The notes beneath the pieces are model-generated. The model was not told where the DNA came from, did not search any database, and worked only from the letters and a program-made list of their open reading frames with translations. This document shows, piece by piece, positions 3,478-63,996 of a DNA stretch of 64,000 nt. Source of the stretch: an uncultured Gammaproteobacteria bacterium (GTDB taxonomy: Bacteria; Patescibacteriota; Patescibacteriia; Patescibacteriales; JAGXOH01); contig CAZWNU010000001.1 of the NCBI GenBank assembly GCA_964635515.1, positions 5,068 to 69,067 on the forward strand. Direction: 5' to 3'. How positions within the stretch are numbered: position 1 is the first letter of the stretch; each line of letters begins with the position of its first letter. The translations under genes and the position numbers were made by a program.

Positions 3478-6237
3478 ATGATCGAAAAAAAAGATGAATT
3501 ACAATTTATAACTTGCCCTGAATGCCAGGGGAGTGGAAGAGGGGAAATGGGGTTTGGCTGTTTTAATTGTCAGGAAATGGGGCAAGGGGTTTTATTTAAG
3601 GGAAGATTCTTATTTTTTGGACCCAAACTTGATATTAAAAAAATAAAATTTCCTTTAATAAAAAACAGGTTCGACAGGATGGTCAATTTTACTTCCTTTT
3701 TTCTCGCTTTCTTAGGCCTCCTGTCTTTGTCTTTTTGGTATTATTTAAATTTCTCTCAATTTCAATTCTGGCAAGATTTTTTATTTTGGCAGTATACCGA
3801 TATTTTGATCTTATTTTTTTGGCTGGGAGCTTTATTTTTCATCTTCGGTATCTACAAAATAATCAAGGAGGGGGATGAGGAGAAAAAGATTTCTGATTTC
3901 AAGGAGGTGGAAGAGAGTTTAGAAAATATTGAAGATTGGGAAGAGATAAAGAAATACAAATACAAATATGATACTGCGGAGGCTTTGAGCAGGGAAAGTT
4001 TGAGAACAATAGCAGAGTCCTATAAAATAGCTAAAAGGTTTAAGCATCAGGAAATAACACCTCTCCATCTTTTCGCCGCTCTAATAATTCAAGATTCTTG
4101 GATGATCGCTCTTTTTGATAGATTAAATATAAATCAACAAGAATTATTTGAAAAAATCGGAAGGCAGTTAAACCGGGAAAAACAATCTCAAAAGAATGCT
4201 CGTCCCTCAAGGTTCAATAAATCGATTAAAAAAATTTTTATCTCTGGTTTTGTGGACGCTTATGAGTTGGGACAAGAGAATGTCAAACCTTTTAATCTAG
4301 TGACTTATTGCACTCGAGAAGATGATTTTCTAAAAGAGCTGCTCCTGGATTTTAAGATTGATGAAAGAAAAATAGAAAATGTTCTGTCTTGGTTCAGGAC
4401 TAATGAAGAAATAATAGAGAATATAAAAACCTATAAAAAGGTTGCCAGATTCAAACCTAAGAGTAATATGGACAGGGCTTATACTTCAGTAGAAACCACC
4501 TTTTTAAATAAGTGTAGTTATGACTTGACCTTGGCAGCTAAGTGGGGTAGATTGGGCTTGTGCGTCTCTAGAGAGAAGGAGATAAATAAAATATTCAATT
4601 CTTTGACTGGTGTTAATAGAGGGGTGGTTTTAGTGGGGCCGGAAGGAGTAGGCAAAAAAACTATTGTCAAAGGAGTGGCCAGGTTGATGGTGAGAGAAAA
4701 AGTCCCTGACTTCTTATGGGACAAGAGGCTGCTAGAGCTAGATGTGGCCAGGTTGCTCAGCGGAGCCACTCCATCTCAATCAGAGGAAAGAATATTAAGA
4801 GTTTTGGATGAAATATTCAGGGCCGGTAATATAGTTTTATATATAAAAAATATTGATAACTTAATAGGAATAAAAGTGGGGGAGGAGGGAGGAATGGATC
4901 TTTCCGAAGCTTTGGTTGACGGGCTGGAAAGGAGAGGTATATATTGCCTGGCCACCACCACTAAAAGCAATTTTTATCAATATGTTGAAAAAAGCGCCAT
5001 AACCGGGAGTATGGCCAAAATAGATGTTTCAGAGCCCGAAGGAGATCAAGCTATCAGAATTATAGAAAGTAAAATAGGCTTGATGGAGGCTAAGTTTAAG
5101 GGAGTGTTCTTTTCCTACAATGCCATAGAATCAGCTATCGAACTGTCCCAGAGATACATCCATGATAAACATTTACCCCAAAAAGCTCTGGAGATTATAG
5201 AGCAAACCGGAATCAGATTATTCAAGTCCAAAAAGAAAAAAGAAAAAGTTCTGTGCAAAAAGAATGATATAGCCCTGACGATCAAGGAAATGACCAATAT
5301 CCCGGTCGATGAAGTGTCAGAGGAGGAAGGGATCAAGCTTCTTGGATTGGAAAAGGAAATACATAAACACATTATAAACCAAAGCGAGGCCGTGAATATG
5401 GTATCTGATAGCCTGAGAAGGGCTAGAGTAGAGTTGAAGGAAGAGAAAAAGACTATATCAAATTTTTTATTTTTAGGACCAACAGGAGTAGGTAAAACTG
5501 AACTGGCCAAAACCGTATCCAAAGTTTATTTAGGAAAAGAGGAGTTTATGATAAGGTTGGACATGAGTGAATATCAGCATGAAGACAGTGTTAAAAAAAT
5601 AATAGGGGACACTAGTGGTAAGAAGGGATATTTGACAGAGGCTGTGAGAAAAAATCCTTTCTCTTTAATACTCCTTGATGAATTTGAAAAAGCTCATCCT
5701 AAGATATTGGATCTCTTTTTACAGGTTACTGATGAGGGCAGACTAACTGACGGTCAGGGAAGAACGGTTGATTTCACCAGTAGCATTATTATAGCCACAT
5801 CAAACATCGGTTCTCGTTTTATTGAAAAGGAAATATCCGTAGGCAAGGAAATCAAGGATATAAAAGAAGTCCTTATAAACGAAAAATTAATAGAAGTTAT
5901 TAAACCGGAATTGATCAATAGGTTTGACGGGGTTATTATATTCAAACCCTTAAGCATGAAGAATGTGGTTGAGATAACCAAATTAATAATAGAAGGAGTC
6001 AGAAAAATGCTTGAAAACAAAAGCATAATTTTAAAAATAGATGAGGCCGGGGTTAGGAAGTTGGCTGAAGAAGGGCATGATCCCAAGTTCGGAGCCAGGC
6101 CCTTAAGGAGATTGATAAAAAAGAAAATAGAAAATGAAATAGCCAAAAAGATATTATCAGGGGAGTTGAGCACAAGAGACACTGTTATCATCAACCATAA
6201 TGTTGAAATAGAAGTCGAAAAGGCTAAAAAATTATAA
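3478..6237 (+). CDS. Membrane-anchored Clp/Hsp100-family AAA+ ATPase with an N-terminal zinc ribbon and a degenerate first nucleotide-binding domain
   Basis: CPECQ...CFNCQ zinc ribbon, then two TM helices, then a Clp_N-like repeat. The first module (D1) has GPEGVGKKT, and the Walker B position reads YIKNID rather than the canonical FIDELH. The second module (D2) is intact: GPTGVGKTE, LILLDEFEKAHP, sensor ATSN and a C-terminal ClpB_D2-small region. Confidence 0.75.
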   Translation: MIEKKDELQFITCPECQGSGRGEMGFGCFNCQEMGQGVLFKGRFLFFGPKLDIKKIKFPLIKNRFDRMVNFTSFFLAFLGLLSLSFWYYLNFSQFQFWQDFLFWQYTDILILFFWLGALFFIFGIYKIIKEGDEEKKISDFKEVEESLENIEDWEEIKKYKYKYDTAEALSRESLRTIAESYKIAKRFKHQEITPLHLFAALIIQDSWMIALFDRLNINQQELFEKIGRQLNREKQSQKNARPSRFNKSIKKIFISGFVDAYELGQENVKPFNLVTYCTREDDFLKELLLDFKIDERKIENVLSWFRTNEEIIENIKTYKKVARFKPKSNMDRAYTSVETTFLNKCSYDLTLAAKWGRLGLCVSREKEINKIFNSLTGVNRGVVLVGPEGVGKKTIVKGVARLMVREKVPDFLWDKRLLELDVARLLSGATPSQSEERILRVLDEIFRAGNIVLYIKNIDNLIGIKVGEEGGMDLSEALVDGLERRGIYCLATTTKSNFYQYVEKSAITGSMAKIDVSEPEGDQAIRIIESKIGLMEAKFKGVFFSYNAIESAIELSQRYIHDKHLPQKALEIIEQTGIRLFKSKKKKEKVLCKKNDIALTIKEMTNIPVDEVSEEEGIKLLGLEKEIHKHIINQSEAVNMVSDSLRRARVELKEEKKTISNFLFLGPTGVGKTELAKTVSKVYLGKEEFMIRLDMSEYQHEDSVKKIIGDTSGKKGYLTEAVRKNPFSLILLDEFEKAHPKILDLFLQVTDEGRLTDGQGRTVDFTSSIIIATSNIGSRFIEKEISVGKEIKDIKEVLINEKLIEVIKPELINRFDGVIIFKPLSMKNVVEITKLIIEGVRKMLENKSIILKIDEAGVRKLAEEGHDPKFGARPLRRLIKKKIENEIAKKILSGELSTRDTVIINHNVEIEVEKAKKL

Positions 6238-59622: not shown

Positions 59623-60576
59623 TCAAGATGTTTTACTATCCTGATTGACATATATTTTTTCCAAGTGTTTTAACATTCTGGCAAACCTGGGAAATCTTGC
59701 TAAAGGGCGCAGAAACCTAACAAAAATAGCCATGTGTCTGGTCACCTCCAATCCGCCCCGAGAAAAGACCTCAAAAGCCACAGCCAGGCCTTGAAAGAAA
59801 CGGAAAACTATAAAAAAAGGTATGGTAGCGATTATATCCAACCAATATTTCCTCATAAAATCCTTGAGTTTGGGCACTTTTCTAAATTTGAAAGAGAGAT
59901 CAAGGACAAAAAACAAAATGACCGCCCAGTCAATTAAATTAAAATAAAAAGAATAAGGAGCCACCTGATCAGCATAAACAAATTCCACCACAATAGCCAC
60001 AAACAAAATAACCAGGGCATAAGGAACAGCATTATCAACCGCCCTTTCAATCTTCTGATAATAGCTAAGCTTACTTGAGTCTATTTTGGGATCTTCGATC
60101 AGGCCAAGCAAGGTGGCTATTCTTTCCACTACAAAAGCTGTCGTGGCCAAGGCTACAAAGAAAGCCAAAAGAGCCGGAATGGTAAGAATAAACTCAGTCA
60201 GGCCATACCCCCCGAGAATGAAACCAAAAGCATAAGCGACAGCCGGAGGATGAGAAGTATCTGTAATTATCAAAATAGCTATAATAAGGCCAACAGCCAA
60301 GGCCGCTTGAATACTTAAGGAGAAAGGAGACAAAGAAACAAGGAATCCTATTAAAGCCGCCCCCAGATAACTGAAAACTATTGTTTTGGGTCTGGCCGAA
60401 GGATTAGTAGGATTAAAGACCACAATAGCGGTAGTGGCGGCGAAGGAAGCAATGGCAATTCCATGGCCAATAGCTTGCTCAAAAACACTAAAAACAAAAA
60501 TCATTATCGCCATCATTAAAGCAGCAATAGACGAGGCCACAAAGGCGTGTCTGAGATGATGGTCTTTGGTCGACAT
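59623..60576 (-). CDS. HPP-family membrane domain fused to a C-terminal voltage-sensor-like (S1-S4) domain, with no pore
   Basis: HPP motif (DTSHPPAVA) in the N-terminal 4-TM half. The C-terminal half has an S2-like helix with an acidic residue (IDWAVILFFVLDLSF), an S3-like LDIIATIPFF (the D...P pattern) and an S4-like RFLRPLARFPRFARMLK, with Arg/Lys at nearly every third position. Confidence 0.5.
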   Translation of the reverse strand: MSTKDHHLRHAFVASSIAALMMAIMIFVFSVFEQAIGHGIAIASFAATTAIVVFNPTNPSARPKTIVFSYLGAALIGFLVSLSPFSLSIQAALAVGLIIAILIITDTSHPPAVAYAFGFILGGYGLTEFILTIPALLAFFVALATTAFVVERIATLLGLIEDPKIDSSKLSYYQKIERAVDNAVPYALVILFVAIVVEFVYADQVAPYSFYFNLIDWAVILFFVLDLSFKFRKVPKLKDFMRKYWLDIIATIPFFIVFRFFQGLAVAFEVFSRGGLEVTRHMAIFVRFLRPLARFPRFARMLKHLEKIYVNQDSKTS

Positions 60577-60579
60577 TTC

Positions 60580-61335
60580 TTATCTATTAATATTTAACTT
60601 CTCTACTGCCTCTCTGTAAGCGCAAAAATCACAGTTCGGATCAGGCTTGGGAAATCGAGAGGAGTCCAAGGTGTCCTTGATATCTTTTAAGGTATCTTCC
60701 AGCCAAGAATCGTCTCCGGTATAAGCGATTAAAGTGATTTTAAATTCCAACTTGGCATCGAACTTCTCAGTATCAGTGATTCCGTTACAATAGACAAAAT
60801 AACCAGTGTCGGAAACCGAATAACCATTTTGACGCAAAAGCCATTGGTAAACCTCCATCTGTCTCTTGTAACCTCTCTGCCAATCTTTATTTAATTCAGT
60901 AATATCTTCTTCCTTGGAGGTTGCCTTATAATCAACCACAATATATTCTCCTTGGGGATTTATCCAAAGATCGTCAATGGCGCCGCTGACTTGAAAACCG
61001 GTGGGTTTATGATAACATTGCACTCCTTGAAAATTACGCCTCCAGACGTCCAGATGATCATGTTTCACCGGCCGAGCGGCAATTCCATAGCGCTCAATCA
61101 ATTCATGGGTTTCACCCTTTTCTCTTAAAATATCAAATTCTTTTTTCAACAGTTCATCTACCGCTGTATTCAGAGCAAAGGGAAATCCGGGCGGACGTTT
61201 TACCCCTAATTTATTATCTAAATAAAAACAAAGCGGGCACTCTATAAACAAGTCTATCTTAGAACGACTCAGTCTCCACTTGCTGCCACCATAATTATAG
61301 GTGGCGCTACGGTTGGGATTATAAAAACTGGACAT
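60580..61335 (-). CDS. Cas4-like PD-(D/E)xK nuclease with an Fe-S cluster cysteine quartet (DUF83-like), not linked to any CRISPR
   Basis: N-terminal ...IECPLCFYL (Cas4 CPxxFY-type motif), AIDDL ... IVVDYK (D...DxK), QMEVYQ (QxxxY) and a C-terminal CDFCAY. Confidence 0.55.
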   Translation of the reverse strand: MSSFYNPNRSATYNYGGSKWRLSRSKIDLFIECPLCFYLDNKLGVKRPPGFPFALNTAVDELLKKEFDILREKGETHELIERYGIAARPVKHDHLDVWRRNFQGVQCYHKPTGFQVSGAIDDLWINPQGEYIVVDYKATSKEEDITELNKDWQRGYKRQMEVYQWLLRQNGYSVSDTGYFVYCNGITDTEKFDAKLEFKITLIAYTGDDSWLEDTLKDIKDTLDSSRFPKPDPNCDFCAYREAVEKLNINR

Positions 61336-61350
61336 AAAATCTATATATAA

Positions 61351-62109
61351 TTAAAAAGAAAAATGCTTTAACCCCTCAATTATTCCCTGAGAAAAGTTTT
61401 TTTTGGCTATATAGACACGGGAAGGGTCTCCGGAAAGATCTTTCTTTAAAGATTCAGGAGCATTACCGACTAAAACGGCCTTAAATCCAGTGCTTAAAGC
61501 TTCCAGGTCATTTCCGGAATCACCTGCATAAATAACTTCATCTTTCCCAGCCCCCAACTTCTTAGCCAAAAATTCAAGAACACCACCTTTTCCTCCTAGC
61601 CTGGGTATGATATCAACCAGCCCCAAATTTTTGACCCTGTCTTCGGAATAGATCAGTTTAGCTGGAGTATCAACCAATCTTTCTTCAATTTCCTCAAGAG
61701 CTTCCTTTTTATTGTAATCCAGCTTTAAGTAATAACTTAACTTAAAATCGGTTTGAGCTCGATCTTCTTGAAGGCTAAGGCCTGCTATACCCTTCAACTT
61801 TTTCTTCATTTCCAGCCAATTATAGGACTCGGAAAGTAGGTAATCTTCATAATCTTTATCTTTCTTCCACTCCCCTCTCCGGAGAGAATAAATGGCAGTG
61901 CCTACGTCAGATGATAGAAAATCGGTCTGAGGAAGATAATAATCAGCTAACACTTCTAAGATCATGGATAAACTTCTACCGCTGATGTAGGCGATCTTTA
62001 GATCTTTTCTTTTTTTTAGGATATCTTCCAACTCTTTTAGATCCTCTTTAACAAAAGATTCTTCCTTGGGAACAAGAGTATTATCTATATCACTGGCAAA
62101 TAGTTTCAT
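61351..62109 (-). CDS. HAD-IIB phosphatase closely resembling sucrose-phosphate phosphatase (SPP)
   Basis: ASDIDNTLV (DxDxT), YISGRS, GDSGNDLEAL; colinear with cyanobacterial SPP along its whole length. Confidence 0.65.
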   Translation of the reverse strand: MKLFASDIDNTLVPKEESFVKEDLKELEDILKKRKDLKIAYISGRSLSMILEVLADYYLPQTDFLSSDVGTAIYSLRRGEWKKDKDYEDYLLSESYNWLEMKKKLKGIAGLSLQEDRAQTDFKLSYYLKLDYNKKEALEEIEERLVDTPAKLIYSEDRVKNLGLVDIIPRLGGKGGVLEFLAKKLGAGKDEVIYAGDSGNDLEALSTGFKAVLVGNAPESLKKDLSGDPSRVYIAKKNFSQGIIEGLKHFSF

Positions 62110-63314
62110 ATTATCTTACCTGATTTAAAAGCAAATATTTGACCGGCGGCGTTCCAAGCCATATATGGAGTCCCTTCGGGTGTTTTTTTCTTACCGTGAA
62201 GATACTCATAAAAACCCCAACTACCACCCTCCCTTCGGTCCAGATAGTTGGCTTTAGTGATCTCTTCTAAACAATGCTCAGCCAGATCTTTTCGATCGGA
62301 TCTTCTCAGTGCTGCCGCGTAAAAACCGTTTATCATTGGCCACAGGCCTCCATTGTGATTTAAATAGGGCTTGTTTTTGAACTCGAACAAAAAGGAAACC
62401 TGAAGTTCTTCCCAATCCTTGTCACCTCTCTTAATTATTGGATAAAAAGCGGGGATTAACGAGTTTTGGGAAATTTCAGTCGCATACTCTATTATTTTTT
62501 GACTCTGCTCTTTAGTGGACAGACCAAAAAGAATAACCAAAGAATTGGCAAAAAAATCAAATCTTTTGGTTTCAACGTCAAAGGACTCTATCCAATAACT
62601 ACTGTTTTTATTTAACTTATCAAATATAGCTTGATGATAAATATATTTCCTGTCTTTTTTCTCAACCTTGTCCGGTCCGAAATTGACCTCAATCCTTCGT
62701 TTTAATTTGTTTTTCTTCTTAACCCAATAACTAAAAGAATCACCCCTGACCTTCCTTATCTTAATAAACTCGGTTAAGGCTTGATAATAAAGAACTTGAT
62801 CATAAAGCAGATAACCCTGTCTGGGCATTTCATCAGCCCAGTCGCCGGATCTGGGTACGAAAATGAAGCCCCTTTGATTGAATTCCCAAGATTCAAGAAG
62901 GGAGATAACCTTGACTATTGCTGGATAGTGAAGATCCAAAAACTCCTGGTCCCGAGTTTGATTGTAATATTTGACACAACCAAGAACATACCATAAAGGC
63001 GAGTCGACTCGACCAGCCAGAGTACCATAACTCACCCTCTTGCTTTCGGGACTGACATTGCTGGGAATCTCTCCTTGCCTGCCCTGAAACTTTAAAAGAG
63101 TATCCAGGGTTTTTCTAAAAGCATTGATCAATCTTTCCTCCCCGGTGAGAAGAGCCGCTAGTCCGGTAATAACCCCGTCTCTCGCCCAAACCCTTCTGTA
63201 ATTAGCTCTTTTCTTGGAAGAGGCATAAAAACCATGCTCAGAAGAACATTTATACAAGAGATCAATCGACTTTTTATATCCGACACGAGGCAAATCCATC
63301 ATAAAAACCTTCAT
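62106..63314 (-). CDS. GH100-like (alpha/alpha)6-barrel glycoside hydrolase (neutral/alkaline invertase-like)
   Basis: YRRVWARDGVI, KTLDTLLKFQGRQGEIPS, HNGGLWP, and a C-terminal region with a WG..EY...GK pattern (YMAWNAAGQ); these are all shared with plant and cyanobacterial neutral invertases. Confidence 0.5.
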   Translation of the reverse strand: MKVFMMDLPRVGYKKSIDLLYKCSSEHGFYASSKKRANYRRVWARDGVITGLAALLTGEERLINAFRKTLDTLLKFQGRQGEIPSNVSPESKRVSYGTLAGRVDSPLWYVLGCVKYYNQTRDQEFLDLHYPAIVKVISLLESWEFNQRGFIFVPRSGDWADEMPRQGYLLYDQVLYYQALTEFIKIRKVRGDSFSYWVKKKNKLKRRIEVNFGPDKVEKKDRKYIYHQAIFDKLNKNSSYWIESFDVETKRFDFFANSLVILFGLSTKEQSQKIIEYATEISQNSLIPAFYPIIKRGDKDWEELQVSFLFEFKNKPYLNHNGGLWPMINGFYAAALRRSDRKDLAEHCLEEITKANYLDRREGGSWGFYEYLHGKKKTPEGTPYMAWNAAGQIFAFKSGKII

Positions 63315-63399: not shown

Positions 63400-63996
63400 T
63401 TATTCTATACCTAATTCCAAGGCTCTCTTGATCTGGGGGATTTCTCTAGCCTTCACATCGGACAAGGAATTTTCTTTGTAGTCCTGGATTATTTTAACTC
63501 CCTCCAGGTCCAGAGCTGTTCTTTTAGTTGAGGCTAAAATGAGCTCCGGTCGCCTTGTGGGACCTTTCATAGGACCCCGGCTAATGAAACAAACGCGAGC
63601 ATCCATAACAACCAGATCGGGCTTAATTATCGAATTCAACTCAGCGATTTTTTCTTGAAGATGCCGAGCATGAAGAGACAACCTTTCCCTGGGCCTCATT
63701 AAGCCTACTGCTAATTTTAAGGCTCCGGTATATTGAGACAAAAAATGAGTTTTTAAGCACGGTAAAAATATCAATTTATCTGCCTTTTCCAAGGGGCCGG
63801 CAAGAGAAACATTCTTCAAATACCTTCCTTGGGGCACCTTCTTTTTTACCCAGGATCCCCGATCAAGATTAAGTACTTTAACTTTCGGATCTAAGTCTTC
63901 TAGCTCATAAACCCCTAAATCGATTAAAACATCTTCGGTTTTGGCTAACATGGTAGAAGAAGCTCCAATTAAAACCTCTCGGGGTTGTTGTTCCAA
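63400..63996 (-). CDS. DUF362-domain protein, C-terminal part (the N-terminus lies beyond the window)
   Basis: LIFLPCLKTHFLSQYTGALKLAVG and PDLVVMDARVCFISRGPMKGP match the DUF362 core. Confidence 0.5.
   Translation of the reverse strand: MEQQPREVLIGASSTMLAKTEDVLIDLGVYELEDLDPKVKVLNLDRGSWVKKKVPQGRYLKNVSLAGPLEKADKLIFLPCLKTHFLSQYTGALKLAVGLMRPRERLSLHARHLQEKIAELNSIIKPDLVVMDARVCFISRGPMKGPTRRPELILASTKRTALDLEGVKIIQDYKENSLSDVKAREIPQIKRALELGIE

Follow-up and report, generated by a model that had tools for sequence, protein, structure and literature searches.

The 64,000-nucleotide stretch of DNA analysed here (the window; positions 5,068 to 69,067 of contig CAZWNU010000001.1, assembly GCA_964635515.1; guanine-plus-cytosine content 37%) encodes, at positions 59623..60576 on the minus strand, a protein in which an HPP-family transmembrane domain is followed by a voltage-sensor-like domain. 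The open reading frame (ORF) is uninterrupted, comprises 317 amino acids plus a stop codon, and begins with an ATG located 3 nucleotides past the stop of the upstream gene. Its limits agree exactly with those given in the original prediction, an earlier reading of the DNA from its letters alone, which had left the strand unstated. A search of 5.8 billion proteins retrieved an identical copy of the window protein and 16 full-length homologues (289-328 amino acids, 40-66% identity), and both halves were present in all the full-length homologues. Independent assemblies carry the identical protein in the same gene context. Because of the identical copy and the full-length homologues with both halves, the ORF represents a real gene and not a chance reading frame. 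A mis-called or chimeric ORF joining two genes was rejected, and its probability is negligible: the frame is unbroken, the protein recurs on independent assemblies, and the 17 homologues with both halves include five in GTDB genomes.

The two halves of the fusion protein

The N-terminal half (residues 6-154; 60115..60561, minus strand, as for all parts of the protein described below) matched the Pfam profile TM_HPP (PF04982) with an E-value of 1.5e-16 and 60.8 bits (cut-off 27.2), over profile positions 4-151 of 157. Since the score lies above the gathering cut-off over the whole domain, this half belongs to the HPP family. The same profile was matched by all 17 family members. The signature H109-P110-P111 (60244..60252) lies within the string DTSHPPAVA (residues 106-114), which had been recognized in the original prediction. 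It was invariant in 12 aligned HPP halves, and among the 17 homologues H109 and P111 were invariant in every sequence and P110 nearly so, one homologue reading HTP. The half had been described as a bundle of four transmembrane (TM) helices, but AlphaFold predicted about six, with AlphaFold2 confidence (predicted local distance difference test, pLDDT) of about 80-93 across most of the region. The predicted helices and the hydropathy profile suggest that both ends of the domain are cytoplasmic. Therefore, the first helix (S1) of the following module could start inside, as in a canonical sensor. No solved structure of any HPP relative was detectable by sequence against the PDB. A profile search with the HPP half gave a single match and no close non-fusion relatives, the word index being saturated by hydrophobic words, and an NCBIfam scan of the protein gave nothing useful. 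The HPP half of the fusion is divergent in sequence. The function of HPP proteins is not wholly unknown, as had been supposed: the HPP protein AtNITR2;1 performs high-affinity nitrite transport (Maeda et al. 2014, summarised in PMC4137279). According to that summary, AtNITR2;1 and cyanobacterial proteins are the only representatives of the HPP family for which nitrite transport is known (PMC4137279).

In scans of the whole protein, the strong HPP match masks a second match, to Ion_trans (PF00520), and the C-terminal half was scanned alone. It matched Ion_trans with an E-value of 1.9e-5 and 24.4 bits, 0.6 below the cut-off of 25, over profile positions 10-114 of 241. Ion_trans was matched by 12 of the 17 family members, and two orthologues (P0003 and P0016) exceeded the cut-off with 33.3 and 28.8 bits. 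Each of these matches runs in one stretch from S1 to profile position ~108-120 of 241; therefore, they take in the S4-like motif and stop where the pore would begin. Family profiles searched against all PDB sequences retrieved, apart from a few unrelated chains whose E-values were weak, channels that contain voltage sensors. Among these were the isolated KvAP sensor (1ORS/2KYH, E about 0.013), Kv4.2, Shaker, Kv2.1 and the Kv1.2-2.1 chimera, to which a deeper profile added NavCt (E = 0.0034) and NaChBac. In hhalign, the module and KvAP's voltage-sensing domain (VSD) were collinear from S1 to S4 over 113 columns (pairwise E = 2.9e-4, probability only 40%). The original prediction had proposed looking for a voltage-sensor match over residues ~170-317, and the matches to Ion_trans, KvAP and NavCt supply it. 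Homology of this domain to voltage sensors can thus be regarded as secure on the strength of its sequence.

The HPP domain is followed by a cytoplasmic linker and a conserved pre-S1 helix (residues 155-184; 60025..60114), predicted to be helical and containing D181 and E177, the latter conserved at 93-94% in the fusions and in the stand-alone relatives of the module described below. The S1-like helix (residues 185-202; 59971..60024), delimited by alignment to KvAP S1, has a Kyte-Doolittle mean of 2.27 and carries P185 and E198. From the translation and alignment to Shaker, the S2-like helix (residues 212-231; 59884..59943) carries D216, F223, D226 and K230, and the S3-like helix (residues 245-272; 59761..59844) carries W245, D247, P253 (100% conserved) and R259 and has an S3b-like end. 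In a single-sequence alignment, D216, F223, D226, K230 and D247 correspond to Shaker E283, F290, E293, R297 and D316, respectively, and the pattern D216-x6-F223-x2-D226-x3-K230, with D247, has a spacing identical to that of Shaker. Represented among these residues are the outer acid and, from the gating charge-transfer centre, the aromatic plug and both acids. The module therefore has the elements of such a centre, namely an aromatic residue in S2, an acid three residues on and an acid in S3 (F223, D226 and D247), and it also has the outer acids of a sensor, E198 (74-89% conserved) and D216 (95-100%). In the stand-alone relatives (n = 249), D216, F223, D226 and K230 were conserved at 95%, 96%, 99% and 94%, respectively, and D247 was D or E in 97%; position 230 was K in only 47% of the fusions. 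The S2-like helix with a conserved acid and the S3-like string LDIIATIPFF (residues 246-255) of the original prediction are both borne out, the former by D226 and D216 and the latter by the alignment of D247 to Shaker D316. R259 (59800-59802) was conserved at 94-100% across the family. We know of no conserved S3 charge of this kind in canonical voltage sensors, and R259 may serve the outer acids E198 and D216 as a fixed partner. Three residues after R259, the fusions have a conserved Q (Q262, 59791-59793) and the stand-alone relatives an E.

The S4-like basic segment AIFVRFLRPLARFPRFARMLK (residues 283-303; 59668..59730) was delimited from the translation and its conservation. It lies after S3, where S4 belongs, is covered by the single-stretch Ion_trans alignments, and is collinear with KvAP S4 in hhalign. 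Its basic part, RFLRPLARFPRFARMLK (residues 287-303), is followed by 14 further residues. The basic residues are R287, R290, R294, R297, R300 and K303, with a spacing of 3-4-3-3-3, and the corresponding motif of the stand-alone relatives has up to seven basic residues at triplet spacing (family range 5-7). The non-basic residues P291, A293, P296 and F298, which separate the arginines, do not vary in the fusions; such constancy would not be expected of a solvent-exposed amphipathic helix. In 149 stand-alone relatives, the net charge was +1.6 for the N-terminus, -0.95 for S1-S2, +3.9 for S2-S3, -0.65 for the S3-S4 linker and +4.8 for the tail. This charge alternation fits four crossings, giving a predicted topology compatible with the canonical sensor orientation. 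In many stand-alone proteins, the charged S3-S4 linker opens with GQK(I/V)LHxGLE, in which the His is conserved; a His is found at the same place in the window protein (H281) and its three closest homologues. This His, presumably on the outer face, could serve as a site for metal or pH.

The protein ends 14 amino acids after K303, the last basic residue of the S4-like motif. The original prediction had correctly placed the end shortly after S4, at a distance of about 20 residues that proved too long. The short C-terminal tail (residues 304-317; 59626..59667 from the translation) is without S5-P-S6. Because all Ion_trans matches stop at position ~108-120 (114 for the window protein), the fusion protein has no S5-P-S6 pore, as had been anticipated. 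In agreement with this, no K+-channel-type filter (T[VILT]G[YFL]G or G[YF]GD) was found in 277 family proteins. A Pfam scan found no domain beyond the HPP and voltage-sensor-like halves, and no phosphatase, Na_H_Exchanger or cNMP-binding match.

Distribution and gene neighbourhoods

The original prediction had suggested a search for the same fusion in related genomes, and it was found in five GTDB genomes. All belong to the candidate phyla radiation (CPR)/Patescibacteria: one of Nealsonbacteria (66% identity), two of Kaiserbacteria, one of Campbellbacteria and one of Paceibacterota. Several CPR classes thus have the fusion with HPP in conserved form. Judged from these genomes, the window probably derives from a Nealsonbacteria-like genome; no tRNA gene in it was of use for taxonomy. 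When 1.84 billion cluster representatives were searched exhaustively with HMMER and the C-terminal profile, 595 proteins were retrieved at E <= 1e-3, of which 220 were at E <= 1e-10. These approximately 595 representatives stand for clusters at 50% identity. Only about five of the 595 matches were HPP fusions, and nearly all the others, from about 590 clusters, were stand-alone modules. The stand-alone proteins have about 150-250 amino acids, and the domain begins at residue 3-5. Their layout consists of S1-S3, a variable, highly charged (E/K-rich) linker with a median length of 37 amino acids, the motif RFxRFLRPxARxPRFxK, often FYEKP, and a K/R-rich tail. Where the source was named, they came mostly from Woesearchaeota/Nanoarchaeota (DPANN). 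In the databases they are named "hypothetical protein" or "ion transporter", and the existing annotation of the module consists only of "ion transporter" or sub-threshold Ion_trans labels. Examples among proteins P0020-P0277 are encoded at loci L015 (3001-3603), L018 (3001-3471) and L020 (3001-3513). No pore gene adjoined three distinct stand-alone genes.

In protein P0140, encoded on two independent assemblies (L013 3001-4764 and L014 460-2223), the module stands N-terminal to an amino acid-polyamine-organocation (APC) amino-acid permease, recognized by AA_permease_2 with an E-value of 3e-44. P0140 is, by its domain matches, a second transporter fusion of the VSD-like module. Three other proteins, P0115 (351 amino acids), P0144 (292 amino acids) and P0276 (271 amino acids), have extra C-terminal segments after the module without a Pfam match. 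The extension of P0115 contains a further TM helix and a Cys-containing domain that is probably external.

The upstream neighbour of the fusion gene in the window (60580-61335, minus strand) is a PD-(D/E)XK nuclease-like gene (PF12705, PDDEXK_1). Because of the 3-nucleotide gap, the two genes are probably co-transcribed or translationally coupled. This pairing was not seen at the other fusion loci. Further upstream (61351-63314 and 63400-63996, both on the minus strand) are genes for an S6PP-like sucrose-phosphate phosphatase of the HAD family, a GH100 alkaline/neutral invertase-like protein and a DUF362 protein. They form a sucrose-metabolism-like cluster, which seems surprising for a CPR genome. 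About 170 nucleotides downstream of the fusion gene are dxr and a flavodoxin-like gene. No second copy of the HPP or VSD-like module was found within the 64-kb window. The gene neighbourhoods of five fusion loci were not conserved and gave no operon clue, and no nitrogen genes were found near any of them. Since the neighbours are unrelated among the fusion loci, the context gives no functional hint. The only recurring neighbour in the fusion contexts examined was a PF27854 (Heavy_Cys_CGP) gene, located directly upstream of the fusion at two other loci (L010 3749-4480 and L012 798-1562).

Possible function of the module

We propose that the module is a voltage-sensing regulator of the HPP transport domain, by analogy with SLC9C1, the sperm Na+/H+ exchanger, and we judge the chances for and against this proposal to be about evenly balanced. 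The protein would lie in the inner membrane of a CPR (Nealsonbacteria-like) bacterium and consist of two modules, of which the N-terminal one is an HPP-family transport domain. The C-terminal module would be derived from the voltage sensor (S1-S4) of prokaryotic Kv/Nav channels, without the pore, and would still sense the membrane potential. The basic segment R287-K303 would move relative to the F223/D226/D247 centre and the outer acids E198 and D216. This movement would be transmitted within the membrane, through the linker between HPP-TM6 and pre-S1 and through lateral helix contacts, and the HPP pathway would be opened, closed or biased by it. With hardly any residues after S4, coupling would be intramembrane or through the pre-S1 linker; the 14-residue tail is too short for a cytoplasmic lever of the S4-S5 type. 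We infer the membrane crossing of S4, its movement with voltage, the control of the HPP domain and the substrate.

The position, charge periodicity and topology of the RFLRPLARFPRF motif are right for S4, in line with the string, the location and the approximately triplet charges on which the original prediction was based. S4 is nevertheless the weak point of the proposal, and several observations weigh against an S4 that senses voltage. The invariance of P291 and P296 and the single four-residue step are atypical for S4. AlphaFold models built from alignments of 17 and 135 sequences gave a pLDDT of only about 50 for residues 250-317, against 83-90 for S1-S3, and the deeper alignment of 135 sequences did not lift the confidence in the S4 region. 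A profile of the S4 motif alone retrieved no true S4 from the PDB sequences. Foldseek found no significant VSD fold match for the domain-only model, and for the full two-domain model against the PDB it returned only meaningless alignments of the G-protein-coupled-receptor type, with TM-scores below 0.25. The segment is also less hydrophobic than KvAP S4, with Kyte-Doolittle means of 0.70 and 1.21, respectively. Of the S1-S4 bundle for which the original prediction had proposed structure prediction as a check, S1-S3 were modelled with confidence and S4 was not. Overall, the HPP and voltage-sensor-like fusion without a pore stands in its domain identities and architecture, and the S4-like segment is probably a mobile transmembrane S4.

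The same weaknesses, that is, the low confidence in both models, the motif's failure to retrieve S4, its modest hydrophobicity and its prolines, are what would be expected of a degenerate sensor, a reading we regard as clearly less probable than voltage-dependent regulation yet deserving of attention. In such a protein, only S1-S3 would cross the membrane, and the Arg/Pro-rich motif would be a basic element, peripheral or cytoplasmic, with anionic lipids or a partner as its ligand. Such a module would act as an anchor, an oligomerisation domain or a lipid-sensing domain and not as a voltage sensor. This reading is also favoured by the 3-4-3 spacing, which lines up four arginines on one face of an alpha-helix, and by the long, highly charged and variable linker that precedes the motif in the stand-alone relatives. 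However, an odd number of crossings would place the basic tails (+4.8) and the five-arginine motif outside, contrary to the positive-inside loops. The first helix of APC permeases begins in the cytoplasm, and an odd number of crossings would invert the permease in P0140. In addition, the full set of counter-charges is 94-100% conserved, a fact difficult to account for if the bundle enclosed no charged partner, and the Pfam alignments cross the motif without a break.

It is improbable, in our estimate, that the module itself conducts, either protons in the manner of Hv1 or cations through a gating pore, with the HPP fusion joining two transport activities. The module occurs alone in hundreds of protein clusters, and it must therefore function without a fused effector; no pore gene adjoins it in three distinct contexts, and Hv1 demonstrates that a VSD can conduct (PMC13095418). 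However, the full arginine complement and the F223 plug would normally seal a gating pore. The selectivity Asp of Hv1 is located in mid-S1, two turns below the position that matches E198, and at that place the module has an invariant Leu (L191). Moreover, no Hv1 chain was found among the PDB matches, and the residues common at 283-303 in the S4-like motif include no Trp, although the S4 Trp is totally conserved in Hv1 (PMC10377628). Identity with Hv1 was rejected. A split channel, in which a pore-only subunit from a separate gene joins the module in trans and the HPP fusion is incidental, was likewise rejected and appears very unlikely. PMC6013512 and a preprint (bioRxiv 10.64898/2026.08.07.743441) describe unlinked VSD and pore modules that can work, but no Ion_trans, Ion_trans_2 or other pore gene was found beside the three stand-alone genes or near the fusion genes. 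The conservation of the HPP fusion across CPR classes and the single copy of the module in the window also speak against such a pairing.

A review of 2023 concluded, after database searches, that all prokaryotic voltage sensors carry a pore domain (PMC10377628), and both this review and a 2024 review entitled "Voltage sensors" (PMC13095418) note that bacteria and archaea lack Hv. In the library searched, we found no paper on HPP together with voltage sensors, none on VSDs in CPR or DPANN lineages, and nothing on the HPP domain with CBS, on pore-lacking prokaryotic sensors or on the stand-alone family. To our knowledge, few voltage sensors control non-pore effectors, and those described so far come from eukaryotes (Hv1, VSP, TMEM266 and SLC9C1). 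What is new here is the pairing of a pore-less sensor module with an effector in a prokaryote, HPP as the partner, and a large undescribed stand-alone family. The original prediction missed both the stand-alone pore-less family and the precedent of SLC9C1 for a fusion of transporter and VSD. We tentatively suggest, with a confidence somewhat short of even, that the approximately 595 clusters, mainly of DPANN and CPR, constitute a large undescribed family of prokaryotic voltage sensors without a pore, which has become attached to transporters on at least two occasions (HPP and APC).

If this is true, the HPP and APC fusions would be the first prokaryotic voltage-regulated transporters, and the published view that every prokaryotic VSD comes with a pore and that pore-less sensors originated in eukaryotes alone would be overturned. 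If the module senses voltage, the modularity of sensors would be much older than thought, and the poorly understood HPP family would gain a regulatory handle and a testable phenotype. It would also hint at solute transport controlled by the membrane potential in symbiotic microbes of ultra-small size, about whose energy metabolism little is known. With about 150-200 amino acids, the stand-alone versions would be attractive as minimal sensors for biophysics or for the engineering of voltage indicators.

Comparison with known systems

The best sequence matches to the window module are the VSDs of KvAP and NavCt/NaChBac (the S1-S4 half of PF00520). With these it shares collinear S1-S3 helices, a charge-transfer centre and outer acids of identical spacing, and a basic segment after S3. 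Unlike them, the window protein has no S4-S5 linker and no S5-P-S6 and is fused behind HPP, its S4-like segment contains the two invariant prolines and the four-residue step, and its S3-like helix contains the invariant R259. It is therefore not a complete voltage-gated channel of six TM helices, since the S5-P loop-S6 pore with a selectivity filter is missing.

Like Hv1, Ci-VSP and TMEM266, the module has S1-S4 without a pore domain, and the stand-alone relatives are about as large as Hv1 and TMEM266. However, its closest relatives by sequence are the prokaryotic Kv/Nav sensors and not these three proteins. Unlike Ci-VSP, the window protein has no PTEN-like phosphatase and only 14 residues after S4, and unlike Hv1, its module lacks the S4 Trp and the mid-S1 Asp. 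On the side of the transport domain, the protein resembles other PF04982 members such as AtNITR2;1 in having a full-length HPP domain with the HPP motif. HPP-CBS proteins (COG3448) carry a regulatory CBS pair at the C-terminus of HPP. The window protein likewise has a putatively regulatory domain C-terminal to HPP, but this domain is membrane-embedded and VSD-like and not a cytoplasmic CBS pair.

The closest parallel in architecture is SLC9C1, in which a VSD fused behind the transporter controls exchange (PMC13095418). Both proteins have, in one polypeptide, a transporter followed by an S1-S4 sensor or sensor-like module, and in SLC9C1 the sensor regulates transport and not a channel pore. [quoted passage not shown] In contrast, the window protein has an HPP transporter, no cytoplasmic domain and 14 residues after S4. 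It is therefore not a member of the SLC9C1 type, and the likeness, drawn by analogy, is one of architecture and logic only.

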